IMG/VR virus record: IMGVR_UViG_3300049324_000002
Span: 82,491-146,490 of that record
Reading direction: 5' to 3' (one strand)
Origin: a virus
DNA length: 64,000 bases
Shown piece by piece: positions 1 through 64,000 of this stretch. The position numbers and the translations under genes were made by a program. Positions within the stretch are counted from its first letter, which is position 1. Each line of letters begins with the position of its first letter. Under the pieces are notes generated by a model. That model made no database searches. It saw nothing but the letters and a program-made list of their open reading frames with translations, and was not told the DNA's origin.

Positions 1-2620
1 GTTCGGATCGATTCGCCTCGGCTCGCGTAGTCAACTGAGAAGGAAAGATCTGAATGGAAGAGTCGGACTGGAAACGTCGAGGGCTGACCTGAAACGAGTA
101 GTCGGACTAGGAATGCCAAGAAACGATTAGCATCGAGTAGTCGGAATAGAATAGCTAAGGCAAGACAAGATCAGTCGGAACAGACAGGACTCGCAAAGGA
201 ACAGAAGTGCCATGAGTAGTCGGTCCGACGTGAATCGACAATGTTAGGAATAGTCGTACGGGGCCGATACGCCTCGACTTGAACTGTCGAAACGAAATGA
301 CTTGGCGGGCATGGAGAAGTCGGTCTAGAAACGACAAGATCTGCAACGGCTAGTCAGATCGGAGGGAATTGACTGGTATGGAAGCGGGAAGTCGGATGGG
401 GAATGACTGGATTGGAAAGCGGGTAGTCACGCGAGACGAATCGACACGCATAGTCGAACAGACATGATAGGAAACGCGTCGAGTAGTCGTCAAGGACTGA
501 CCCGACACGAGTAGTCAAAAGGCACGCATCGTCTGGAAACGAGTAGTCAAACGGGGTGAATCGCCACGCACAGTCAACCGACTCGATCTGACCCGTAAGG
601 AAACGAGTAGTCGGAAAGAAAGGAAGCGAAGACGGAACGCGTCGAGTAGTCGGAACGGATGAGTAATGAAATCGCATCGCCACGAGTAGTCGGCATGGCA
701 GGGGAGAGGCGAGAGTAGTCGAAAGGACGTGAACCGATATGAATAGATTCGTCGTATCGAGCTGAGGGGATGAGAAACGCATCGCGTAGTCAGACGGGAC
801 TGGACATGATTAGTCGGATAAGACGTGAGCGGTAAAGAGTAGTCGGAAGTGTGCCGCTAGGACCTGACACGTCAAGCGAACAGAGTCGATCTGACCCGTC
901 AACAGAAGTGACACGTAAAGAATAGTCGGACCCGGAAGGTAGGGAACGGACCTGACACGTCACCAGAGCAGAAGTGGCACGCAAAGAGTAGTCAACTGAC
1001 ACGGAGTGAGTGGACGTGGATAGCGTAGTCAATCGAGACGACCCGAAACGCAAGGAGAAGTCGGAAAAGATACGGACAGAAAGTGGATTGAGTAGTCATA
1101 CGAGACGACACGGAACGTAAGGAGAAGTCGTGCGATTCGAATCGATAGGAATCGAAGTAGAGTAGTCGAACGGACCCGACGTGGGAGGAAAAGGGCAGTC
1201 ACCTGACCCGGCGCGGACCGAGCGGGAAAGAGTAGTCGAGGTGGAGAGCCCAGAATCGATCTGTCGAAGCGGACCGAACGGTCGTGAATTGAGTAGTCGT
1301 ACTGAGTTGGAATCGAGTGGGAATGAGTAGTCAACTGAGCGGAATTGTACAGAGTAGTCAAACGAATCGAAGCGGTATCGCGCGGGAATGAGTAGTCGCA
1401 CAGTATTGAGCGGGCTCGCGTTGAGTAGTCAACTGACACGAAGGGACGTGGCACGATCCGTCAGGTCACATCGCATCGAATAGACGTGAGTAGTCGAAAC
1501 GAAGGGAAACGACTCGGGTCGGCTCGAACAGAGATGTCGAAACGAATCGGCGGGATATGGAAAGTCGTAACGGGTCGGCGGGATGTGAGATGTCGAAAAG
1601 ATAAGACACGACCGGAAAAGAAGAAAGAGACGCGACTGGTCGAACGAAAAGAATCGGAATGGATCGCGTAGACTCGTCACCAGAACAGAGCGGGTCGGTA
1701 GTGATCTGTCGGGCGACAAGACACGGCGCGATGTGAAAAGTCGAAAGAAACGACCTGAACCGTAGAGCATCGACAGGTCGCTGGGAACGAATTGTCCGGG
1801 CCAGAGAAGTCACACGAGTGGGAACGAATAGGTCTGTCACTCGAAATGAGTTGACGCGGTAATGGGTAGTCAAGTGAAAAGACGTGGCAGGAATGGACGT
1901 GAGTAGTCACACGATCCGATATGATCGGAAGGGACTTGTCGGTATAGTAAGAATGGATCGGTGACGATCAGTCGAATAGACCGGGAACGACACAACGCGA
2001 CATGAGTAGTCAATCGAATCGATAAGCGTGGCATGGACTTGTCGGACTAGCAAGGACCAGAAAAGATCTGTCGAACGGACCTGACTCGACCAGCATGGAC
2101 ATGAGTAGTCAACTGACACGGATCGAGTGGCATGGACTTGTCGAAACGAAGGGATACGCCTCGACTTGACCTGTCAAAAGACCGGAAAGGACCAGACTCG
2201 ACGCGATAGGTCACATCGAAACAAATAGACGCGAATCGTCAAACGATAAGACAAGATGCGAAACGACTGGACCTGTCGAAATGATCGGACGGGCAGTGAT
2301 TTGTCAAATGAAGCGATTGGACGGGAAATGACACGTCACATGAATCGACCGGGAGCGACCCGATAGGTCGTACGAAGTGAAAGGGCAGGAAAGGACATGT
2401 CAGCATGAACAGAAATGTAGCGATCTGAACGGTCGTGCAGAAGTGGGGTGATGGGAAAGGACATGTCAGTGCGAATGGACCGGGCATGACTTGCCACGTC
2501 AAGCGACCAGACCAGACTAGACTCGAAGCGATAGGTCGAACAGGAACGACGCGACTCGATAGGATATGTCACAACGACCGGAATCGACGCGTCACGACGC
2601 GATATGTCACACGATACCCA
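1..2620 (-). repeat. Phased pentamer array (~78 units, mostly 27-28, 32-33 or 37-39 bp); putative ncRNA array, truncated at the left window edge
   Basis: Plus strand parses as GTC-N4/6-(GANNN)4-7, e.g. 2303 GTC aaat GAagc GAttg GAcgg GAaat GAcac GTC acat GAatc GAccg GGagc GAccc GAtag GTC. Many units end GAGTA-GTC. No credible ORF. Strand inferred from the promoter at 2639-2668. Confidence 0.9.
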
Positions 2621-7921: not shown

Positions 7922-8209
7922 CTACCGGAAAGCGTAAGCCTCCTGCTCGGCAACGTGCTCCAAAGGCTGGCCAGCCCGCTGAGCACGACGCTTCAACGAC
8001 CGACGCTCATCCTCAGACAAACCACCCCACACACCAGCATCCTGTCCAGACTTCAAAGCCCAGATCAAACACTCAGTAGCGACGGGGCACCGACGACAAA
8101 CCGCCTTCGCCTTATTAACCTGCACCAAAGCAGGACCACTTTGCCCTACAGGAAAAAACATCTCCGGATCCTCTTTACGACAAGCAGCACGGTGACGCCA
8201 ATCAGCCAT
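7922..8209 (-). CDS. whiB: WhiB family Fe-S transcription factor, WhiB1/WblE-like
   Basis: MADWRHRAAC..DPEMFFPVG..C-RR-C..EC..GVWGGLSEDERRSLKRR; GAGGAGG RBS. Confidence 0.95.
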   Translation of the reverse strand: MADWRHRAACRKEDPEMFFPVGQSGPALVQVNKAKAVCRRCPVATECLIWALKSGQDAGVWGGLSEDERRSLKRRAQRAGQPLEHVAEQEAYAFR

Positions 8210-8300
8210 CGGAAACACCTCCTCGCCACTAAGAACAGGACACCCACGTCCTACCCAACAACACCAAGGAAGGAAGCAGAGATATAAAGCATACAACAAC

Positions 8301-8344
8301 GACACGAGGGTGCAACCCATTTACATGAGATGCACCCTCGTGTC
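8301..8344. terminator. 14-bp inverted repeat (likely terminator)
   Basis: GACACGAGGGTGCA...TGCACCCTCGTGTC. Confidence 0.6.
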
Positions 8345-48670: not shown

Positions 48671-49381
48671 TTACTGCATGAAGTTAGTGGACTGTGACGC
48701 TCTGAAGTCTTCAGGTCGCATATGAATACCAAACTCACCAATATGCAAAGCACGCGAAACCTGAGGATGCACAAACGTCATACCAAAACGCGGCAGAATC
48801 CGACGTCGAATATTCCAATCCCAACCAGCCTCAGACCCGTCAGGATTCCCTGTCGAATAATCCTTATCCCACGTATCGCGAAGGAACTTATACCAACGAT
48901 CACGCCACGTCCCCCACACCAAAGGACAAAAATCAGCAGCCGTATACATCACAGAAGGATCGCCTTGCTCATGAAAACTAGAAGCACAAACACCCAACAC
49001 ATCTAATTCATCTCGATAAGTCATGTGAGCTTCAGACATATACTCGAGCAAACCAGAAGACACAATAATGTCTTCCTCAACCAAAACAGTGAAGTCGGCG
49101 CCAGCCTTAAAAGAACTATCTAATGCATACCAAGGATTACCTAGAACACCAAGACGGCCCTCATTACACACCACAACCGTATCAGTTAACTCAGACTCAG
49201 CTATCCACCTATTAATAGCAAGTAGCGTATCCTCTTGGAACTCACCAGGCTCCACAAAGAAACTAAACGACCACTTATCTAAATCACGAACATGCAACCA
49301 TGAAGCAAGAGTCGCACGCAAATACGCAAGTCTATGCTCGTACGAGGACACCGTCATAACAACAGCCAAAGATTTATTCAT
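48671..49381 (-). CDS. glycosyltransferase (GT-A fold)
   Basis: R..YL..TL, VEED, WGTWRDRW, WDW, HIG. Confidence 0.8.
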   Translation of the reverse strand: MNKSLAVVMTVSSYEHRLAYLRATLASWLHVRDLDKWSFSFFVEPGEFQEDTLLAINRWIAESELTDTVVVCNEGRLGVLGNPWYALDSSFKAGADFTVLVEEDIIVSSGLLEYMSEAHMTYRDELDVLGVCASSFHEQGDPSVMYTAADFCPLVWGTWRDRWYKFLRDTWDKDYSTGNPDGSEAGWDWNIRRRILPRFGMTFVHPQVSRALHIGEFGIHMRPEDFRASQSTNFMQ

Positions 49382-50628
49382 GACTTACGTCCAATACGAA
49401 TAACAGTAACATCCTCTCGATCAGGAACGAACCCAAACGGATCCAGCACCACCGACCCAGGCGCATAAGCCAACGTACTAAAATCAGTATGCCTAGTTCC
49501 AATCACATACAAAGCCTTACCACTAACCTCATGCTCTCCATCAACATACGGATCATACGAACTAGCATCAATACCACGATCCATCAACATACTAAGAAGT
49601 AACAAAGCAGGAGAACCATAAACCAAATCAGACTGCGGCTTATACGACTTACCTAAAAGCAATACATTCAACCCAGTAAGATCGTGCCAATGCTCAACTA
49701 ACCCGGCCAACCACTCCGTCTGCGATTCTCTAGCACTCGCCATATAACCCATTAAATCAGTAGACAAATCGAGTCGCTCGGCCAACCAAGACATTGCAAT
49801 TAAGTCCCTAGGATGGCAAGCGCCACCGTCACCCATCCCACCGCGCATATAAGCAGGAGAAACAACACGATCTGTAGCCAAAGACAAAGCATCAACCACA
49901 AGGTCACAATCAGCACCAGTCTTATGCGAAACTTCCATTAACATATTAGCGAACACAATCTTCATACTAATGAACGTATTATAAGCAACCTTGACTAACT
50001 CAGCAGTATCGATAGGAGTAACAAACAAAGGCTTATCATGGACTAAACTATAAACCTCCCTTAGCCTATCGACATGTTCACTCTCACCATCATCGGAACC
50101 AACCAAAACAAACTCAGGATTCTCTAAATCACTAATAGTAGAACCCATAGCGATAAAGAACGGATTATAGATAAGGTGAGCATAAGGATTCTGCAGAGAA
50201 CGTAAATGACGACTGAACGTGCCAGGCAACGCTGTCGACACCACAACCGCCGTCACCGACCGACGCTGCCGCTCCGCTGCCCCGGCCGCATCCCGAACAG
50301 CCTGCGCCAAAAACCCGTACTCGAAGTCACGGCGCTCAGCAGGCATACGATTCTCACCGCCATACGCAGGAGCATGTGGAGTCTGAACCGCCACGAACAC
50401 CACGTCCGACTCAGCGACCACACCATCGATCGTGTCAGCAAGCTTCAGCGACGTCCGCGCCAGCAACGCCTCAATACCCGCCTCACGAGGAGGAGGCGCC
50501 ACGCCATCTAAAATCCTATCAGGCAAATCCGAAACATCATAACCAATAACCTGATGTCCATGATACGCAAACGTAAGAGCGCAAGGCAATCCGAGCTTGC
50601 CTAAACCGACCCAGCCGATTTTAGCCAC
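49378..50628 (-). CDS. UDP-glucose/GDP-mannose dehydrogenase
   Basis: GLGKLG, AVQTP, VST, YNPFF, AELVK, GGACHPRD, KSYKP. Confidence 0.93.
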   Translation of the reverse strand: MAKIGWVGLGKLGLPCALTFAYHGHQVIGYDVSDLPDRILDGVAPPPREAGIEALLARTSLKLADTIDGVVAESDVVFVAVQTPHAPAYGGENRMPAERRDFEYGFLAQAVRDAAGAAERQRRSVTAVVVSTALPGTFSRHLRSLQNPYAHLIYNPFFIAMGSTISDLENPEFVLVGSDDGESEHVDRLREVYSLVHDKPLFVTPIDTAELVKVAYNTFISMKIVFANMLMEVSHKTGADCDLVVDALSLATDRVVSPAYMRGGMGDGGACHPRDLIAMSWLAERLDLSTDLMGYMASARESQTEWLAGLVEHWHDLTGLNVLLLGKSYKPQSDLVYGSPALLLLSMLMDRGIDASSYDPYVDGEHEVSGKALYVIGTRHTDFSTLAYAPGSVVLDPFGFVPDREDVTVIRIGRKS

Positions 50629-51272
50629 TTAGCAACCTTCTCAATGTCAGTACGTAAGAGAGTTTGCATACGATCAGAGTAAAACTCTTCAGTCCTATAC
50701 CCACTAGAGGATTCGACAAAAGTCTGATCGTTATGGCCACCAGTTAAATCAAACCGGTCATGAAAGACATGAACGTCAAGCTTACGAAGAATGCCCAAAC
50801 TATTAGCCAAGTCCTGCAACCACGAATCAATATGATTAGACAAACTCATATGACCAAGAATACTATACAAAGCTCGAGACATAGCGGGAAAGCAACACAT
50901 AGTGTGCTCAACGCCAGTACTCGAAGGACTCAATACCAACGGTGAGCTACTATCGAATCTATGAAAAATAGAATCCCAACCCTGTAAATCCATCAACGCA
51001 TCATCATTCCACAAAAACAACCAGTCACCATTGGCCAACTCAGCCATACGATTCACATATAGATGAAGCTGATGATACCCAGCTCTCTCATCAAATCTGC
51101 AAGCAAACAAATTCATCTCTTTAGCAATATCACCTGTAGCCGGATCATCTATATCATAACCAACAAACACCCGAATAGAACTGGGATCATCTGCTGACCT
51201 ATACAAAGAAGACACAGACCGGCGCAACGAATCCGGGCGACCGCGAGACGGAAGCAAAACACTAATAGTCAA
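50601..51272 (-). CDS. glycosyltransferase family 2-like
   Basis: SVLLPSRGRP, DIDD, WNDD. Confidence 0.85.
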   Translation of the reverse strand: MTISVLLPSRGRPDSLRRSVSSLYRSADDPSSIRVFVGYDIDDPATGDIAKEMNLFACRFDERAGYHQLHLYVNRMAELANGDWLFLWNDDALMDLQGWDSIFHRFDSSSPLVLSPSSTGVEHTMCCFPAMSRALYSILGHMSLSNHIDSWLQDLANSLGILRKLDVHVFHDRFDLTGGHNDQTFVESSSGYRTEEFYSDRMQTLLRTDIEKVAKWLKSAGSV

Positions 51273-52430: not shown

Positions 52431-52874
52431 CTACGAAGAACGGTTCTCAAGAATAATAAACCCGTCTGGAGTCTGAGATACCACTCCCAGACTCTCCAAC
52501 TGACGAAAGAAAACCTGAATCGTATCACGGGACCAACCCAAACTATCAACAACATCAATAAAATCTGAATTATAAAGAAGCACTCTGCCTTGCGCCTTCA
52601 ACTCGTGAAAACGATTCATCATGCGATTGCCAAACTGCTCGCCCACACTCATATCTTTCTCTTCAATCATTTGAAGCAAGGCACGCAAATCTCCGAAAGT
52701 AAGACCAGTTACAATATCATCTCCATACACATAAGACGTGGCAACAAGCAACTTAGTGTCATCTGGCGTTTCACTGTAAACAGCAATTGTATGCTTTAGA
52801 TTGCCAATAGGAGTACCATCAGTCTCAGGGACTCCTCTCAGTTCCAACTCTCTCACAAACTTATGCCTGTTCAT
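52431..52874 (-). CDS. protein with C-terminal copy of the TraB winged-helix domain
   Basis: RFHELKAQG..DF.DV...GW.R..I...LG.V..TPDGF matches the TraB C-terminus in this window. Confidence 0.75.
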   Translation of the reverse strand: MNRHKFVRELELRGVPETDGTPIGNLKHTIAVYSETPDDTKLLVATSYVYGDDIVTGLTFGDLRALLQMIEEKDMSVGEQFGNRMMNRFHELKAQGRVLLYNSDFIDVVDSLGWSRDTIQVFFRQLESLGVVSQTPDGFIILENRSS

Positions 52875-58094: not shown

Positions 58095-59084
58095 TCACGA
58101 CCTAGAAAAACCGCTGACCAAGCTTCGCAATAAATCCTGCAGGAAAGGTATGCCATGAGGGAAGACGCTGGGGAGCCACTGCAGCATCACCGCATACGCT
58201 AGCGCAATCATCATGAAAATGAGAATCCATTTAACAATGACCTTCTCAAAAAACCCACCAGTATCGAACGGCAGCGGCGAGTAAAACTCCTCCCAAGTAA
58301 GGGGAGAAAGAAAAGCCAGTCCAGCCGTGGTGCACGTATCAGCAAAATCATGCGACAACATGCCCAGAGCGACGCACGTGCCCCACAACCAACCCATGTC
58401 TACAAGATGATCCGCCAACCCGACCACGCCGAAATGAATGGCACCAGTCACGACATACAACGCAAGTACCGGACCGGCAAACACGAGATCCCCGGCCAGA
58501 CCAACGGTAGTCACGAAAACGATAACCGAAATCCACCAAGGCCCAGCGGCGCACATATAACCAATAACCAGTCCAACAAATATAGCCGTAAACACAGAAT
58601 GAGTGAATCCACGATGCGCAGATCTCCACATTCGTTTACGACCTACGAGAAACCATAACCCCTGCGGCAAGTAAGAACACAATGACGTACGGAACCGTCC
58701 GGCCTGAAAATACCCATTCCAAGCAGGTGGATCATGACCACGTCTCGTCAACGTATAGAGAATGCGGTTAATCCAAACCACAATCATATGCAGTGGAAAT
58801 GTTACAGGTGGAAAGGCACGAGTTACAGTAGCGCCATGGTGGTCAATATCATTCCATTCACCAGCACCCCCCACAATGGCAGGCGCAATTAACACATCAG
58901 CGGCCCAGGTAATACCAATTAATTGAGCGCCAAATGCACACCCAGCGAGGCCCCAAACGACCCCCATCCGAACGTGCTGCCTGACTTCCACGGCCGTATA
59001 CCTCTCATCGGGGGAGATTGCAAATACCTGGGAGCCATGTTGCTCCAGATTTGTATCGTTGCACACTCCTACCCGTGAGACCAC
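58095..59084 (-). CDS. membrane-bound metal-dependent hydrolase (YdjM-like)
   Basis: DIDH, HRGFTHS, SHDFAD..T..G. Confidence 0.85.
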   Translation of the reverse strand: MVSRVGVCNDTNLEQHGSQVFAISPDERYTAVEVRQHVRMGVVWGLAGCAFGAQLIGITWAADVLIAPAIVGGAGEWNDIDHHGATVTRAFPPVTFPLHMIVVWINRILYTLTRRGHDPPAWNGYFQAGRFRTSLCSYLPQGLWFLVGRKRMWRSAHRGFTHSVFTAIFVGLVIGYMCAAGPWWISVIVFVTTVGLAGDLVFAGPVLALYVVTGAIHFGVVGLADHLVDMGWLWGTCVALGMLSHDFADTCTTAGLAFLSPLTWEEFYSPLPFDTGGFFEKVIVKWILIFMMIALAYAVMLQWLPSVFPHGIPFLQDLLRSLVSGFSRS

Positions 59085-59090
59085 GCGACC

Positions 59091-59259
59091 TCGTGACAGC
59101 CTGGGTGTGCTAGGGACGTCACGAAGCTCGTCACGAACCGACCCGCTGTCACGACCCTCTATACCGCCTTCTTATGATCTTTTACGTCACGAGATCTGTC
59201 AAAGGATGTAAAGAACAAATGGGACGTTTCGGGCACCCAAGCTGGCACAAGTGTCACGG
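59091..59259. repeat. YGTCACGA octamer repeats, candidate clt transfer locus
   Basis: Copies at 59117, 59129, 59147, 59185, near-copy 59252, inverted copy 59091; intergenic, downstream of the tra genes. Confidence 0.55.
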
Positions 59260-59273
59260 ACAAAACGGACTGA

Positions 59274-59906
59274 TCAGTGCTTGACAGGACAGTGAACCGT
59301 CACGCCAGGGCAGCTACTTTTGCCGCTACGAAAGATCAAACTAAGCAAGAAAAGGCACGCCGGGACACCGACCACCACCGAAAAAATGGCTACCGCATTC
59401 GCCTGAAGCCACGTAGCGACCGCTGAGACGAAACCCCAGAGCTGCAGGCCCAACAGCGACCCCAGGACCACCACAGCCGTGATCCCAAGCCACAACGGGG
59501 CAGCGTTAAGAACGTCAACCCAACGACTCGTGCTAAACGCGCGATCCAAGTCCTCGCGAGAAGAATAGGTCAACTCTCTATTCACGTACTCACGCTGAGC
59601 AGGCTGCTCCGCAACCACAGGCTGAGGAGCAGTCTGAACAGGAGCGTTCTGGGGCATAAACCCCGCAGGAGACTGGCCAGCAGGCAGGTACACACGACGG
59701 CGCGTCACCGTCGTTTCCTCCTCCAACACCACACCAGGCTGCGCGACAGACGCCAACGCTGACCCGGCCACGTGATAAGGACGAAGCGCAGACTCCGCAA
59801 TCCAGTAATCAGTGTTAACAGGGGCGGGTATCACTTCTACGTTTTCCATTAGTCCCATCCAAAGAATCGGGCAGCGTATCGCCTCCGCTCCATGCCCTTG
59901 CACCAC
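59274..59906 (-). CDS. membrane protein (Spd-like; probable start MENVE)
   Basis: Two C-terminal TM and CPG..HCP tail. Confidence 0.7.
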   Translation of the reverse strand: MVQGHGAEAIRCPILWMGLMENVEVIPAPVNTDYWIAESALRPYHVAGSALASVAQPGVVLEEETTVTRRRVYLPAGQSPAGFMPQNAPVQTAPQPVVAEQPAQREYVNRELTYSSREDLDRAFSTSRWVDVLNAAPLWLGITAVVVLGSLLGLQLWGFVSAVATWLQANAVAIFSVVVGVPACLFLLSLIFRSGKSSCPGVTVHCPVKH

Positions 59907-60145
59907 CAGCAGGAGTAATGACTATACGCACCAAACCAACCATAAACTCTCTTCTTGCCCGCACACCACCAACACGGAATGTACGGACGGACCTTACAGT
60001 GCCCAACATACAACACCAGTACGATCCCAATCACGCTCAGCGAGAGCGTGACATCAATCAGAAACACGTCACATAGTACCGACAACACATGGAAAAACCC
60101 AGACACTAACTCTGTGAGAAGATCCAGCACACCCACAGTGACCAC
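59849..60145 (-). CDS. membrane protein with DnaJ-type zinc finger
   Basis: TM then CWWCAG...CWWCKG..RRR. Confidence 0.7.
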   Translation of the reverse strand: MVTVGVLDLLTELVSGFFHVLSVLCDVFLIDVTLSLSVIGIVLVLYVGHCKVRPYIPCWWCAGKKRVYGWFGAYSHYSCWWCKGMERRRYAARFFGWD

Positions 60146-60157
60146 ACCCCTATCCCT

Positions 60158-60193
60158 AAAAAAGGAAAACGTAGAGCCCGCAGGCTCTACGTT
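60158..60193 (-). terminator. intrinsic terminator after traB
   Basis: AACGTAGAGCC/GGCTCTACGTT stem followed by TTCCTTTTTT on minus strand. Confidence 0.8.
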
Positions 60194-60243
60194 AACCGGA
60201 AGACAGGGGGTAAATCAAAACAACTCAGGTCGGAGGGGACAAA

Positions 60244-62673
60244 CTACCCCTTAACAATAACGAACCCATCTGGTGTCTCAGTTACAATCCCCAGCTCCCT
60301 CTCCCAACTACGAAGACGTGGATAAATAATAGTACGTGCCCAACCAGCCTGAGCAATGACATCAGCGAAGTCTCCACCCTTCACCATATCCTTACCCTGT
60401 GCCTTCAACTCCTTAAACCGAACCATCAGTGCAGCATCGAACTTATCCTGCGGCCACGCGTGCTCCTTAGGCACACCCAACCGCAACGGAGGACGATCAG
60501 CCGGACGCACAGGCAGCGGAGCATCAGGATCGATCCGCTCCAACAACGCAAGATCCTCCGCATCAGGAGCATTCTCACCGTAATCAATAACCTGATCAGC
60601 CAACCCAGGAGTACTAATAGTCATCGTTCGACCATCGGCACTACGTTCAGTAGTGACAAAATCATCGCTTTCGACAACGTGCATATCACCCTCTCCATCC
60701 TCTTCACCGTCGTCATACTCGGTCTCAGTACCATTGATGATGCTTTCAACATCACCATTACGCTCCGTGTAAATCTTCAAAGCTTCCGCCATCTCAGTAG
60801 GGGTAGTTCCCGACAACTGAGCCAAGAAACTCAGCACATCAGGCGTAGCCCCAGGCAGAGCAGGAGTCTCCTCATCGGAAGACCCCTCCAGCGGAACATC
60901 ATCTTCCTCAATCCCAGGACCCATCGCTGGATGACCATTCACAGCATCAGCAGCGTTCTTCAACGCATCACCCGTCACCTTCGTAACATTGCGAACCGAA
61001 CCAACTCGCTTCACAACCTCCATCGGCGTGGTGTGATTAGCCCACAACGGCCCGAACGCTGCAGCAGTAACCGGATCCATCGGCTTCAGCTTAGACGCAA
61101 TCTGCGTGGCAGCCTCAGCAAAAGAAATAACCCCGCAATCAAAGTAAGACCGACGCTCAATCACCTTCTCATCAAGCGTCATACCGCCGCGCTGCATGTA
61201 ATGCATACCCGGGGCGGTATCCTTCCAACGCTCAGGATCAGCGCCAGCCTCGACAACCTCGTCATCAAGAACCATCGTGCCGAACCCACCACCCAAACCA
61301 TAACAACGACGAGTACCAAGCTGCTCACGAACAGTCGTACTAATCATGTCATGGCTAGCACGCTGCAGCGAGATGTTGAGCTGAATCCCAGCCGACCGAG
61401 CAGCCAACGCAATCGCGGTAATTTCATCCGTGTCTACAAGATCCCACGCCTCCTCAATATGCAGACGCACCAACGACAACTTAGACTTCAGCGACCACTG
61501 AGCCAGACCCTCCTGCGCCAAAAACTCAGTACGAGCAGGAATAACCTCCTTCGCAATCCGACGCAAAATCGCCTTAGCAGTACCCTCATCAGTAGCCAAC
61601 CAATGCAACGCAGGAGCAAGAGGACCGAACGTCTGCGTCTTCTTCACAGTATCGATGATAATATTGACAGCACCAAGAGCAGCAGTATAAAGGACAATCG
61701 GCTTCTCGCCCTCGCTCTTACCAGAGCCAGTCATCCCCTGAATCAGAGCGTGCTTCGTGCCCTCAGGACGAACCACCCACAAACCACCCTCATCACCATC
61801 AGAGTCGACACCCGTAGGAATCAAACTCATCAGATTCATGCCACGCTTAATCACCACACCCGGCCACGGCACACTCCCCGCCAGCGGATCCTTCAACATC
61901 ACAATCGCTAGCGCCTTGGCTCGCGCACCAAACACCGGCTTACCAGGCGCAGGAAGGATCCTCGTGCTCTTCCGAGGCCACCCCTTCGCGGACTCAATCG
62001 CCGCGATACTGCCCTGAATGTTCTCCACCGTCATGCCCTTAGGCAAAGTAAGGATGCCCTGCATCTTGTACTCACTGACCTGCTTGACATCACCACTCAC
62101 ACCCGGAACACCACCATCCTCCCAATCATTACTCGGAGGATTCGCAGCATCCTTAATATGCTCTCGACTCACACCCTGACGGATATTCCAAATAATCGCT
62201 GCCGCACCACCAAACATCCACCACAAATCAAACGTGGGATGCTCAGGAACAGGAACCCTCCACAACCACCAACTCACGTAAGACATGTGGAACAATCCCT
62301 GATAGGCAGCAAAAATTAAGAAGATACCAATACCAATAACAGTAGCCAACGTGTGACTCAATGACAATACAGAACGAGATTTAGTGGTATGCCACGCGGC
62401 ATAAGCAACCAACCCCGTGGCACCCACCAAACCAGTATAAGCCAGCCAAGTCCAGTCACTGATAGCCAAGAAGGAAGTGTGCACAAGCTGGCCAATAACT
62501 AACGCAGCGACCAGAACAAGCCAAGGACCCAGTAACACTGCATTCTGTGCCTCAACATGACCCGCAGTCGACTTACGACTACCGCTGGCCGCGCTCACAA
62601 CACGGCCAGCCGAGCGCGCCCCACTACCGGCAGCACGCTTAGCTCCCGCAACACGACCTTTACGAGTGACCAC
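60244..62673 (-). CDS. traB: TraB-like FtsK/SpoIIIE conjugative DNA translocase
   Basis: N-terminal TMs, GMTGSGKS Walker A, IEEA Walker B, RSAGI..SLQR, acidic linker, C-terminal wHTH. Confidence 0.88.
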   Translation of the reverse strand: MVTRKGRVAGAKRAAGSGARSAGRVVSAASGSRKSTAGHVEAQNAVLLGPWLVLVAALVIGQLVHTSFLAISDWTWLAYTGLVGATGLVAYAAWHTTKSRSVLSLSHTLATVIGIGIFLIFAAYQGLFHMSYVSWWLWRVPVPEHPTFDLWWMFGGAAAIIWNIRQGVSREHIKDAANPPSNDWEDGGVPGVSGDVKQVSEYKMQGILTLPKGMTVENIQGSIAAIESAKGWPRKSTRILPAPGKPVFGARAKALAIVMLKDPLAGSVPWPGVVIKRGMNLMSLIPTGVDSDGDEGGLWVVRPEGTKHALIQGMTGSGKSEGEKPIVLYTAALGAVNIIIDTVKKTQTFGPLAPALHWLATDEGTAKAILRRIAKEVIPARTEFLAQEGLAQWSLKSKLSLVRLHIEEAWDLVDTDEITAIALAARSAGIQLNISLQRASHDMISTTVREQLGTRRCYGLGGGFGTMVLDDEVVEAGADPERWKDTAPGMHYMQRGGMTLDEKVIERRSYFDCGVISFAEAATQIASKLKPMDPVTAAAFGPLWANHTTPMEVVKRVGSVRNVTKVTGDALKNAADAVNGHPAMGPGIEEDDVPLEGSSDEETPALPGATPDVLSFLAQLSGTTPTEMAEALKIYTERNGDVESIINGTETEYDDGEEDGEGDMHVVESDDFVTTERSADGRTMTISTPGLADQVIDYGENAPDAEDLALLERIDPDAPLPVRPADRPPLRLGVPKEHAWPQDKFDAALMVRFKELKAQGKDMVKGGDFADVIAQAGWARTIIYPRLRSWERELGIVTETPDGFVIVKG

Positions 62674-62707
62674 TCGTACACACCTCTCCTCAAACTCGAC
62701 TTACTTG

Positions 62708-63142
62708 TTACGCAGTGCTAGCAGAACGACGCCTATTAGACCCGCTCTTCTGGTTCAACTTCAATCCATTCTTAGCCGCTGCATTCGTAGTAGAAGTGGT
62801 AGTAGCAAGACCACCATCAGCAGTCCAGTACTGAATGAAGATCTGGAAAGCTGCAGCAGTATCATTCCTAGCAGACTGCACGTTAGTAGCTGCCCGCTTC
62901 AAAGCCTTGGACACCTTCATTGCCTGCGTCTTATTCTCTTTACGCGGATCCATCCCGTGCTTCTGAGAATTCACAACAGGCGTAACAGTCAACGCAGCGC
63001 GCAGGTGATCTCCCGCATCCTCAAGCTCGCGAGACAAATCCTTAAGCAACGCGTTAACCCGATCACTCCACTCCTTGTACTGATCCTCAGTCTGAAAGTT
63101 AGTCTCACCCAACTCAGCGACCCTATTACCCACTGCCATCAC
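62708..63142 (-). CDS. TraA-like plasmid transfer protein
   Basis: Helical protein directly upstream of traB; KVSKALKRAA...AAAF..F pattern resembling Streptomyces TraA. Confidence 0.6.
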   Translation of the reverse strand: MMAVGNRVAELGETNFQTEDQYKEWSDRVNALLKDLSRELEDAGDHLRAALTVTPVVNSQKHGMDPRKENKTQAMKVSKALKRAATNVQSARNDTAAAFQIFIQYWTADGGLATTTSTTNAAAKNGLKLNQKSGSNRRRSASTA

Positions 63143-64000
63143 ATCTCCTCTGTTGAACGGACTGGAGGCTCCAGACCCGCATCTTTACCCCTGCGAACAG
63201 TCGATAAGACTGAACGCAACGACTCCCTCTTCCTATCTGGGAACCGCTCGTACAAATCGGAGGACTCAACTCGCTTCCCCCGCTTCCACACAGAAAGAAT
63301 GTAATCACGTGTGGATATAGTATCGATAGTGCTCTCAGAGACAACAGAAGGCTCCCGACCATTAGTATCGGGAGCCTGCCCTGTCGTACCCGCTGATCCA
63401 TTCAACGACATCGCAGGAACCAACTCAGGCTCAGGAATCTCCATCACCACCGGCTCGGGCATTTCCTCAACCGCAGGCTCAAGCACGGGCACCCGCTGTG
63501 CTGCCGCCACACGCGCCGCCAGGGACTCACCCGGAGCAGGCTGGACGACCGGCCACAACGGCGCTGGAGCGACAGAAACAGGCTCAGGGAGCACCTCCAC
63601 AGTCTCAGGCACGTCAGCAACCTCAGACTCGAGGGGAGCGCCATCACGAAGCAAGTGAGCCAACGACGCACCCAGCCCCAGCACACCCACCGGCAAAACC
63701 GACACCAACGCAGTCACTATCTCCGCCGCTGAAGTAACACCCGCAGCATTCAACAAGTGGAAAGTGACCTGCCCCAAAGCCCCCAACACCAACGCACCGA
63801 TGCTCGACCACTTCGCAAACTCGCGTGCACGATCAGGAACATGGTAACTGTCTCGATTAGCCAGCCACACTCGAATCGCATAAGCAGCATATGCCTCCAT
63901 ACCAATCGGAAGCGTAATCGCAGTGTTAATCTGAAGACCATCCCAGATGCCGGGTAACAGCTTCACCGTGCCAAACCCAGTGAGGCCACGCCCCCCCCCC
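63139..64000 (-). CDS. SpdA/DUF2637-like membrane spreading protein, 5'-truncated by the window
   Basis: LPIGMEAYAAYA.RVWL, GQV.FHLL, LPV.VLG.GA.LAHL; frame is open to the window edge. Confidence 0.75.
   Translation of the reverse strand, partial: GGGRGLTGFGTVKLLPGIWDGLQINTAITLPIGMEAYAAYAIRVWLANRDSYHVPDRAREFAKWSSIGALVLGALGQVTFHLLNAAGVTSAAEIVTALVSVLPVGVLGLGASLAHLLRDGAPLESEVADVPETVEVLPEPVSVAPAPLWPVVQPAPGESLAARVAAAQRVPVLEPAVEEMPEPVVMEIPEPELVPAMSLNGSAGTTGQAPDTNGREPSVVSESTIDTISTRDYILSVWKRGKRVESSDLYERFPDRKRESLRSVLSTVRRGKDAGLEPPVRSTEEM

Follow-up and report, generated by a model that had tools for sequence, protein, structure and literature searches.

A conserved TraA–TraB transfer cassette of Streptomyces plasmid type in the genome of a large tailed actinophage

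The closest described counterpart of the locus reported here is the traR–traA–traB–spd region of pSN22, an 11-kb rolling-circle plasmid, together with the TraB–clt systems of pJV1 and pSVH1. Regions of this type carry a traA–traB pair with a divergent GntR regulator gene upstream, small coupled membrane genes downstream and an array of 8-mers near traB. Their TraB protein consists of a membrane N-terminus, an FtsK-like motor and a C-terminal winged helix; chromosomal FtsK and SpoIIIE similarly combine this motor fold with a winged-helix DNA-recognition domain at the C-terminus. Transfer genes and virion genes have also been found on one circular molecule, in pZL12, pCQ4 and pSLE1, which are ~85–90 kb in size, high in GC (69% for pSLE1) and maintained by ParAB. 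In pCQ4 a region running from a GntR gene to traA–traB adjoins the terminase and portal genes, and a tra gene of pZL12 is described in PMC3583192 as needed for conjugal transfer (see also PMC4487206 on plasmid-phages). Precedents are known (the pZL12/pCQ4 plasmid-phages with their tra genes; Thoma 2015), and it has been suggested in print that Spd homologues of phages spread phage DNA. Two further systems resemble the locus in part. The cultured Thermobifida phage P1312 (60 kb), the host of which is a mycelial actinomycete, encodes a protein annotated as an FtsK/SpoIIIE ATPase and, immediately after it, a protein with a four-transmembrane-helix (4-TM) domain, and an AICE of Allosaccharopolyspora coralli encodes a GntR regulator, a 4-TM protein, a 748-aa FtsK-like protein, a DUF3631 Rep, Xis and Int.

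The region described here occupies positions 58095–64000 of the window (the whole stretch of 64,000 nt that was analysed) and is a native, conserved TraA–TraB transfer cassette of the Streptomyces plasmid type, set within the recombination and replication module of a phage. All of its genes lie on the minus strand, in the order 4-TM/HTH gene, TraA-like gene, traB, terminator, two genes for small membrane proteins and a gene for a YdjM-like hydrolase. The first three form an operon that is closed by the terminator, and an XRE/DUF5753 + DUF397 regulator pair on the plus strand faces this operon divergently from just beyond the end of the window. The locus shares with pSN22-type regions the traA–traB pair in the same order, the domain arrangement of TraB, the small coupled membrane genes downstream, a divergent regulator upstream and an 8-mer array near traB. 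It differs in that its TraB is only ~30% identical, its regulator is the XRE/DUF5753 + DUF397 pair rather than GntR, no DUF2637/SpdB2 or SpdA homologue is recognizable by sequence, and the carrier is a 146-kb phage instead of a small plasmid. The repeat motif also differs, being TCGTGACA and lying in a promoter/leader ~1 kb from traB.

The carrier is a complete tailed phage of ~146.4 kb with a GC content of 49% and all genes on one strand. The contig ends overlap by about 120 nt, positions 63870–64000 of the window repeating positions 1–131 of the contig, so that the genome closes into a circle; after closure the tra module adjoins RecA, RusA and PolA, and its flanks consist of these and of phage DNA-metabolism genes. 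An earlier note on this DNA had asked for proof of contiguity and for capsid and terminase genes. The contiguity is borne out by the end overlap and by an identical gene order in four other assemblies, and genes for terminase, portal, protease, capsid (MCP) and tail are present on the same molecule. The circularity, the regulator pair, the terminator after traB and the repeat array described below did not figure in that note. With its own PolA, clamp, helicases, RecA and RNR the genome looks like that of a large self-replicating phage, and the phage is probably non-temperate and virulent-looking. WhiB is also encoded; from this and the XRE–DUF397 pair, a kind of pair described as frequent in Streptomyces (PMC6262351, PMC10364602), the host may be a filamentous-type actinobacterium.

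A whole-genome search found no integrase and no tyrosine or serine recombinase. Across the genome there was likewise no ParA or ParB (no match to PF02195 or PF13614) and no GntR/Kor regulator, and neither the genome nor the flanks of the module yielded an AICE replication gene, Xis, Prim-Pol, DUF3631 or an att context. The co-orientation of the module with the phage genes and their common strand skew, both pointed out previously, are correct: the GC and AT skew of the module genes matches that of the rest of the genome, and the strand skew is uniform. GC content rises slightly in the final 6 kb, to 0.54 against ~0.48. GC3 is 0.51–0.53 for traA, traB and ydjM and 0.44–0.56 for core phage genes, and reaches 0.66 in the 4-TM gene. 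A blastn search with the last 8 kb against phages gave no match.

The TraB protein (60244..62673, minus strand, 809 aa) matches the plasmid_TraB model NF041214 (E 4.6e-66) over residues 47–626, which correspond to model positions 9–566 of 639. Its score of 223.6 bits lies far below the equivalog cut-off of 800 bits, which marks a divergent subfamily for which equal function is not assured. The best plasmid matches are the annotated TraB proteins of pCQ4, pSN22 and pJV1, and the 29–31% identity to those of pSN22 and pCQ4 extends across both membrane and motor domains. An annotated Streptosporangium TraB, from an AICE, is 28% identical over 625 aa (BLASTP E 1e-36). The N-terminal membrane domain comprises residues ~36–177, the FtsK-like motor ~280–560 and the C-terminal winged helix 742–806. 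TraB and its relatives share conserved Walker A (GMTGSGKS), Walker B (IEEA) and SLQRAS motifs, with G313, G318, K319, E408 and Q437 among the invariant residues. The AF2 model has a mean pLDDT of 83 and shows the winged helix at the C-terminus, and the top Foldseek matches in the PDB are FtsK motor domains (E 3e-14, target-normalised TM 0.5–0.62). The predicted protein has the full architecture of a plasmid TraB, with its membrane N-terminus, an intact FtsK-type motor and the C-terminal winged helix, and the identification of a TraB (FtsK) gene in the earlier note is thereby confirmed. In sequence, similarity to chromosomal FtsK is marginal (E 0.27 to PDB FtsK), and the N-terminal membrane and middle domains are of the TraB type, unlike those of chromosomal FtsK.

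A phylogeny of TraB, which had also been proposed as a check, places the protein in a 10-member clade (starred in the tree) within a 31-member clade, apart from the TraBs of plasmids and AICEs. As judged from these sequences the branch is deep and diversified, is rich in phage contigs and holds large-phage relatives. Neither the whole TraB nor its counterpart from a second phage lineage (P0018) had a tblastn match among cultured phages; a search with just the motor domain recovered only distant FtsK/SpoIIIE-like genes there, mostly in large Bacillus phages. The match of TraB to phrog_24831 is nevertheless strong (E 1.5e-52), which is at odds with the empty tblastn search. The winged helix has a paralogue elsewhere in the window, formed by the C-terminus of a 147-aa protein (52431..52874, minus strand) that is 44% identical to it over 66 aa (E 2e-16) and has a counterpart in L020, one of the relatives described below.

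Immediately upstream of traB lies the gene for a TraA-like protein of 144 aa (62708..63142, minus strand), the start of which overlaps the stop of the preceding gene by 4 nt. It matches NF041213 plasmid_TraA with E 1.3e-8 and 35 bits, against a cut-off of 80. Its orthologues in the relatives L008, L011 and L020 bear a precomputed match to PF28214 (TraA-like), that of L020 being 70% identical; the TraA-like label given to this gene earlier is well founded.

The operon begins with the gene for a membrane protein of 318 aa (P0172), at 63139..64000 on the minus strand and continuing over the artificial contig end, where the first 43 codons are found at contig positions 226..1 (L003). Its AF2 model consists of four TM helices and a β-hairpin, a disordered Pro-rich linker and a C-terminal helix–turn–helix. 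It had been labelled SpdA-like, which the searches do not sustain: hmmscan gave no Pfam or NCBIfam match, no PF10935 (DUF2637) match occurs in the genome at E<=1, and hhalign of the 4-TM family against the SpdB2 family of pSN22 returned a probability of 0.1%. Only the fold resembles DUF2637/SpdB2, DUF2637 being the nearest foreign structural cluster (TM 0.64/0.52 over 120 residues), a similarity to be taken as a lead only. In the 4-TM domain the protein shares 69% identity (E 5e-64) with the Allosaccharopolyspora AICE protein encoded directly upstream of the FtsK-like gene, and by this sequence match it is identified as one of conjugative elements. The position of the 4-TM domain immediately upstream of a translocase gene is common to the A. 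coralli AICE and the phage; the AICE translocase, however, comes from another family of FtsK-like proteins (E 0.009 against the TraB of the phage), and the AICE has the integrase, Xis and Rep that the phage lacks. P1312 carries the same domain, with 47% identity over 72 aa, but its translocase is again of a different family (no tblastn match to the TraB of the window), the genes are arranged differently and a TraA was not noted. A class-wide genome search with the 4-TM protein gave matches in 4/401 genomes. When the 4-TM and TraA-like proteins were compared by pairwise BLAST with the proteins encoded at the corresponding positions of the Streptosporangium AICE, no significant similarity was obtained.

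The intrinsic terminator (60168..60193, minus strand) lies directly 3′ of traB, with an 11-bp stem, a 4-nt loop and a T-rich tail, and is kept in L020. It is followed by two genes for small membrane proteins, previously called Spd-like, a description that holds for their position, size and membrane character and for nothing beyond these. One encodes a 98-aa protein (59849..60145, minus strand) with a hydrophobic N-terminus and a zinc ribbon of two CWWC motifs, in agreement with the zinc-finger membrane gene of the earlier note. It is 66% identical in L020, with no match in L008, L009 or L011 and no family match. The other encodes a protein of ~191 aa (59274..59849, minus strand) with C-terminal TM helices and a CPGVTVHCP tail, which is 41% identical in L020 and has no Pfam match. 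The start codon of this gene (ATG) overlaps the stop codon (TAA) of the 98-aa gene, and the two genes are translationally coupled. The last gene of the module encodes a polytopic membrane metal-dependent hydrolase of the YdjM family (58095..59084, minus strand, 329 aa; PF04307 E 1e-9, NF008651 weak). It lies downstream of traB in all relatives, its orthologues being 39–78% identical, and is preceded by a sigma-70-like promoter (59174..59202, minus strand; TTGACA-17-GATCAT, 10/12 matches), with similar TGTCAAG...GATCATGAA elements at the equivalent place in L008, L009 and L011. Pfam searches at E<=10 with the unknown proteins of the module returned only noise.

Four relatives, assembled independently from four different metagenomic samples, keep the same synteny, in the order PolA...RusA-RecA-409aa-[4TM]-TraA-TraB-YdjM. 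Three of the four are on contigs of 84–153 kb, and their TraB proteins are 41–68% identical to that of the window. From these comparisons the cassette is an old and conserved part of the phage's own genome.

Between traB and ydjM the motif TCGTGAC(A) forms an array (59091..59192, no strand assigned) of five copies in 102 nt, four of them direct and one inverted; no second cluster of this kind exists in the 146-kb genome. L008, L009, L011 and L020 also have arrays of this core between traB and ydjM, giving five phages in total. On sequence grounds the array is a candidate clt, the loading site of TraB, or a candidate operator. Comparable 8-mer arrays begin at the traB stop codon in the AICE L010 and in an unrelated TraA–TraB phage contig, L012; directly after the traB of the window there is no clt-like array, the terminator being found there instead. 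pSN22, used as a positive control for the array finder, was not a clean one, since its arrays fell within low-complexity coding sequence or 3′ of rep. The array of the window has copies in mixed orientations and overlaps the promoter and 5′ leader of ydjM. Insertions part it from traB, namely the two small genes in this phage and in L020 and an HNH endonuclease in L009, but none parts it from ydjM, so an operator fits at least as well as a clt. The free-standing winged-helix paralogue of 147 aa could be the protein that binds the array.

The reading that we tentatively favour, with a likelihood just short of even, is that the native TraA–TraB cassette pumps phage dsDNA between hyphal compartments independently of virions. 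During infection of a compartmented, mycelial actinomycete, TraB would be present as hexamers in the membrane where hyphae touch or are divided by cross-walls. The winged helix would serve to load the hexamers onto phage dsDNA, for which the 8-mer array is the most plausible site, and replicating phage genomes would then be pumped into adjoining compartments or neighbouring hyphae. TraA, the small membrane proteins and the 4-TM protein, whose fold is SpdB2-like, would form the channel or anchor it. The XRE–DUF397 pair would take the Kor-like role that the GntR protein TraR has on plasmids. The outcome would be local spread, without virions or receptors, of an otherwise ordinary and probably non-temperate phage. 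The predicted spread of phage DNA through mycelium is plausible. Two considerations may limit this reading: a slow pump might be of little benefit to a lytic phage that kills the compartment it occupies, and FtsK/SpoIIIE-like genes are also found in large Bacillus phages, so that such a gene need not mean conjugation.

The same cassette might instead be kept for a Kil or interference function, arresting growth or septation of the infected hypha with a retardation like that seen in pocks, pumping the DNA of host or competitor, or excluding plasmids, AICEs or other phages that arrive by the same route, with the phage genome itself not moved. On plasmids an unregulated traB is toxic (Kil–Kor) and transfer retards the growth of the recipient (PMC4447253), a dedicated divergent regulator pair faces the operon here, and the ydjM promoter may simply have the array as its operator. 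Relatives that are only 41–68% identical nevertheless conserve the motor motifs and the DNA-binding winged helix, which argues for selection on real DNA translocation, and the full set of channel-type membrane partners is retained; we regard this function as unlikely. Translocation could also serve segregation, TraB acting at closing septa in the manner of SpoIIIE, FtsK or SffA and moving genomes into pre-spore compartments or branches, as a carrier state or entrapment, and not between separate cells. The FtsK fold of the motor is consistent with this, the nearest FtsK-like genes of cultured phages are in large phages of spore-forming Bacillus, and no lysogeny genes were found, so that another means of persistence would be useful. 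As the sequence is that of the plasmid TraB family, accompanied by TraA and an AICE-type membrane partner, and not of the chromosomal FtsK type, we consider a role in segregation distinctly improbable.

The remaining explanations concern the nature of the carrier. The earlier note took it for a phage-plasmid, which would be maintained as a plasmid and conjugate in addition, as do pZL12 and pCQ4. The traA–traB pair of pCQ4 beside terminase and portal genes, the requirement for the pZL12 tra gene as given in PMC3583192 and the circular closure of the present genome are in keeping with this. In contrast to those elements, however, no ParA, ParB, GntR regulator or integrase was found, TraB belongs to a different clade, and a 146-kb genome of low GC that keeps all its genes on one strand and itself encodes polymerase, clamp, helicases and RNR has the look of a virulent phage. 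The end overlap is also to be expected of a terminally redundant or permuted linear genome, and we hold plasmid maintenance to be very unlikely. A chimeric assembly, or a recent AICE insertion with its own att sites, had been named as what would refute the proposal. The GC content of the last 6 kb, the GC3 of the 4-TM gene and the 69% identity of its product to an AICE protein would be compatible with a passenger. The synteny of the four relatives from different samples, combined with the phage-like GC3 of traA and traB, shows that the module is neither a chimera nor an inserted AICE; integrase, Xis, Rep, Prim-Pol, DUF3631 and an att context were not found, the strand skew is uniform, the composition is ameliorated and the TraB branch is deep and rich in phage contigs. 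An artefact or passenger is thus extremely improbable.

In its most specific form the pump reading extends to the phage family, and here we are doubtful, though not dismissive: a clade of ~150-kb, low-GC, virulent-looking actinophages would have long kept a plasmid-derived pump with a loading site of its own and would use it to drive replicating genomes through hyphal cross-walls or into hyphae in contact. For a lytic phage this would be a second route of infection that needs neither virions nor receptors, under a switch of developmental type formed by the XRE–DUF397 pair. The cassette offers experimental handles in the motor, the candidate 8-mer loading site and the regulator pair. Should the pump indeed move phage DNA, neither adsorption nor receptors nor the diffusion of virions would set a limit to the infection of mycelial bacteria. 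This would change the reading of plaques, resistance and phage–host dynamics in Streptomyces-like soil bacteria, and the line between lytic phages and conjugative elements would be blurred.

The phage carries an intact, conserved and regulated membrane DNA-pump cassette of the plasmid type, at window 58095-64000. The window is the final 64 kb of a 146,490-bp IMG/VR virus contig, the initial ~120 nt of which are repeated from nt 146,360 on (window 63870-64000 corresponds to contig 1-131), the only mismatches being a poly-C tail and a small number of read-end errors. The assembly therefore closes to a ~146.36-kb molecule, circular or terminally redundant, although IMG/VR labels the record 'linear'. 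The tra module sits at this artificial contig break, across which ORF 63139-64000(-) runs on into contig 226..1 to give a protein of 318 aa. The minus strand carries nearly all genes, and the whole-genome values (GC ~0.49, plus-strand GC skew ~-0.25 and AT skew ~+0.3) include the region 58-64 kb, which agrees with the earlier note that the tra genes share the orientation and strand skew of the phage genes. This strand composition is extreme and uniform genome-wide, with a G- and T-rich coding strand. The GC skew changes sign around window 1-2600 (contig ~81,700-85,000). Dense short-repeat arrays are found there (for example GAGTAGTC, AGTCGGAC and CTTGTCGA, at a spacing of ~28-40 nt), and these form the top of the k-mer scan.

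Of the capsid and terminase genes that the earlier note wanted confirmed, those for the major head protein, head protease and portal are present, together with genes for a minor tail protein, a head-decoration protein and tail proteins; the large terminase gives a weak match only. The genome also encodes ribonucleotide reductase, helicases, a clamp, exonucleases, a methyltransferase, PolA, RusA and RecA. In the DNA-metabolism region, window 49378-51272(-) contains UDP-glucose dehydrogenase and glycosyltransferase genes, which may function in sugar modification of DNA or of the cell wall. A gene of the WhiB family, which marks actinobacteria as well as their phages, is located at window 7922-8320(-) (PF02467, E 9e-28). 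With the best matches of PolA and the decoration protein, found in Microbacterium, Gordonia and Rhodococcus phages, this gene places the phage among the actinophages. Searches of the genome for tyrosine and serine recombinases, ParB, ParA-type ATPases and GntR regulators found nothing.

On the minus strand RecA and a conserved 409-aa gene are followed by a 138-nt divergent control region and then by the tra operon, which consists of three genes encoding the 318-aa 4-TM/HTH protein, a 144-aa TraA-like protein (62708-63142(-)) and an 809-aa TraB (60244-62673(-)). A TATAAT box lies on the minus strand only 7 nt ahead of the ATG of the 318-aa gene, and its transcript is for this reason probably leaderless. 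A strong intrinsic terminator (60193-60168, minus strand) closes the operon. Divergent from it, beyond the window and adjoining its end by circularity, are an XRE regulator with HTH_31 and DUF5753 domains (contig 365-1219(+), E 3e-42) and a DUF397 protein (contig 1216-1395(+), E 1e-14). This pair (365-1395 of L003, the start of the same contig) is almost the sole plus-strand coding in the genome and is kept in the metagenomic relative L020 at 61% and 43% identity. Pairs of XRE/DUF5753 and DUF397 genes are frequent in Streptomyces (PMC6262351, PMC10364602), and the XRE-DUF397 pair is of the WhiJ/BldB type (PMC10294661).

The identification of TraA-like and TraB proteins is confirmed by matches to NF041213 (E 1.3e-8) and NF041214 (E 4.6e-66), respectively. 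Over the stretch that spans membrane domain and motor, TraB is 28% identical (625 aa, E 1e-36) to an annotated TraB of a Streptosporangium AICE, and its best plasmid matches are the annotated TraB genes of pCQ4, pCQ3-like W9, pSN22 and pJV1. In the AF2 model (pLDDT 83) membrane helices at the N-terminus precede a RecA-type motor, and the C-terminus forms a winged helix of three helices and two strands; in Foldseek, FtsK motor domains rank at the top (E 3e-14), with the conjugative coupling protein TcpA next. The Walker A, Walker B and QR motifs are invariant in an alignment of 55 sequences. TraB matches PHROG phrog_24831, of unknown function (E 1.5e-52), yet no close homologue was found in any cultured phage of the collection searched, and a tblastn of 50,697 phage records shows nothing comparable.

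Past the terminator lie genes for a 98-aa protein with a hydrophobic N-terminus and two CWWC motifs (59849-60145(-)) and a ~191-aa membrane protein (59274-59849(-)), the ATG of which overlaps the TAA of the preceding gene. A promoter (TTGACA-17-GATCAT) then precedes the last gene of the module, a YdjM-family membrane hydrolase (58095-59084(-), PF04307). The term Spd-like, applied earlier to the small genes, holds only loosely, in that Spd proteins are defined by small size, diversity and translational coupling (PMC4447253).

The 318-aa protein, previously called SpdA-like, belongs to no Pfam or NCBIfam family. Its highly conserved 4-TM domain shares 64-71% identity with roughly a thousand actinomycete proteins that are often mis-annotated as 'ABC transporter permease'. 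In an Allosaccharopolyspora AICE a homologue (69% identity, E 5e-64) is encoded directly upstream of an FtsK-like translocase, which is of a family other than this phage's TraB, and in the cultured Thermobifida phage P1312 the same domain adjoins an annotated FtsK/SpoIIIE gene. Profile-profile comparison of the 4-TM family with SpdB2/DUF2637, the family of pSN22 SpdB, was negative. The closest structural cluster beyond its own family is nevertheless DUF2637 (TM 0.64/0.52), and the model and SpdB2/DUF2637 are alike in design: in both, a long linker joins four TM helices to an HTH at the C-terminus. On the AICE neighbourhood, the fold and the profile test, the protein is therefore better described as a tra-associated membrane partner, which may work like SpdB2, than as an SpdB2 member, for which the sequence gives no support.

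The order PolA...RusA-RecA-409aa-[4TM]-TraA-TraB-YdjM is kept in four further assemblies, each from a different sample. Three have long contigs (L008, 150 kb; L009, 153 kb; L011, 84 kb) and TraBs 41-43% identical to that of the window; the fourth, the 67-kb contig L020, has an intein-interrupted TraB of 68% identity and carries the two small membrane genes as well as the regulator pair. GC3 is 0.51-0.53 for traA, traB and ydjM, inside the core-phage-gene range (0.44-0.56); only for the 4-TM gene and the two small genes is it somewhat higher (0.61-0.66). A tree of 152 TraB homologues places the window's TraB in a clade of ten (starred in that tree), which takes in all four relatives. This clade is nested in a 31-member clade apart from the 121 others, among them the TraBs of pSN22, pCQ4 and AICEs. 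A neighbour within the larger clade, P0014, is also encoded on a phage-like contig (L015), with GntR-TraA-TraB near a portal gene, and L012, an unrelated low-GC phage-like contig, has another TraA-TraB pair. The AICEs inspected for comparison carry GntR, Rep (DUF3631/Prim-Pol), Xis and Int next to tra, none of which occurs in this phage. Chimeric assembly and recent AICE insertion, the two objections anticipated by the earlier note, are therefore both rejected, and an artefact is essentially excluded; the tra module is part of the phage. LAGLIDADG inteins are present in relatives inside TraB (1280 and 1163 aa) and RecA (791 aa) (L020:8001-11843; P0003, P0004; L011:4654-7029), and in L009 traB is followed by an inserted HNH (Endonuclease_7) gene. 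In this clade inteins target the TraB and RecA genes, and genes have been inserted at the position directly 3' of traB.

The stretch from the promoter to the ydjM start contains TCGTGAC(A) in four direct copies and one inverted copy within 102 nt, the sole such cluster in the genome. Related loci have arrays with the same core (CGTGACA/TGTCACG) in the same place, the densest cluster of each locus. In plasmids clt, the TraB loading site, is an array of direct 8-bp repeats read by the TraB C-terminal domain (PMC4447253). Arrays of 8-mers, both candidate clt sites, start right at the traB stop in L012 (11853-11957, eight copies of GTCACCCC, directly after traB) and in the Streptosporangium AICE L010 (12026-12132, seven copies of GGTGTCAG, at the traB 3' end). 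The phage array is only a candidate site, and chances are about equal that it is clt or an operator, roles that are not exclusive. Its overlap with promoter and leader, its staying with ydjM where other genes are inserted after traB, and the presence of a possible regulator speak against clt. This regulator would be a 147-aa protein (window 52431-52874(-)) with a counterpart in L020. The C-terminal 66 residues of the 147-aa protein are a paralogue of the TraB winged helix, at 44% identity, and the protein may regulate through, or compete for, that DNA motif.

The combination of tra and virion genes is already known from the Streptomyces plasmid-phages pZL12 and pCQ4, and work by Thoma et al. 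is reportedly a further precedent. The differences here lie in the carrier, a large, low-GC and apparently virulent phage clade, in a separate TraB subfamily, in a regulator that is XRE-DUF397 and not GntR, and in a different membrane partner and repeat motif.

A true phage-plasmid life style, as proposed in the earlier note, is one rival reading, but the phage is fully equipped to make virions and has no genes for lysogeny or plasmid maintenance, ParB and ParA-type ATPases included. Alternatively, the cassette could be kept for a Kil-type or exclusion role, or TraB could segregate phage DNA into spores. In the mechanism considered most likely, TraB hexamers would load on the phage dsDNA and, assisted by the membrane partners, translocate it through cross-walls or into neighbouring hyphae. 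The outcome would be local spread of the phage without virions.
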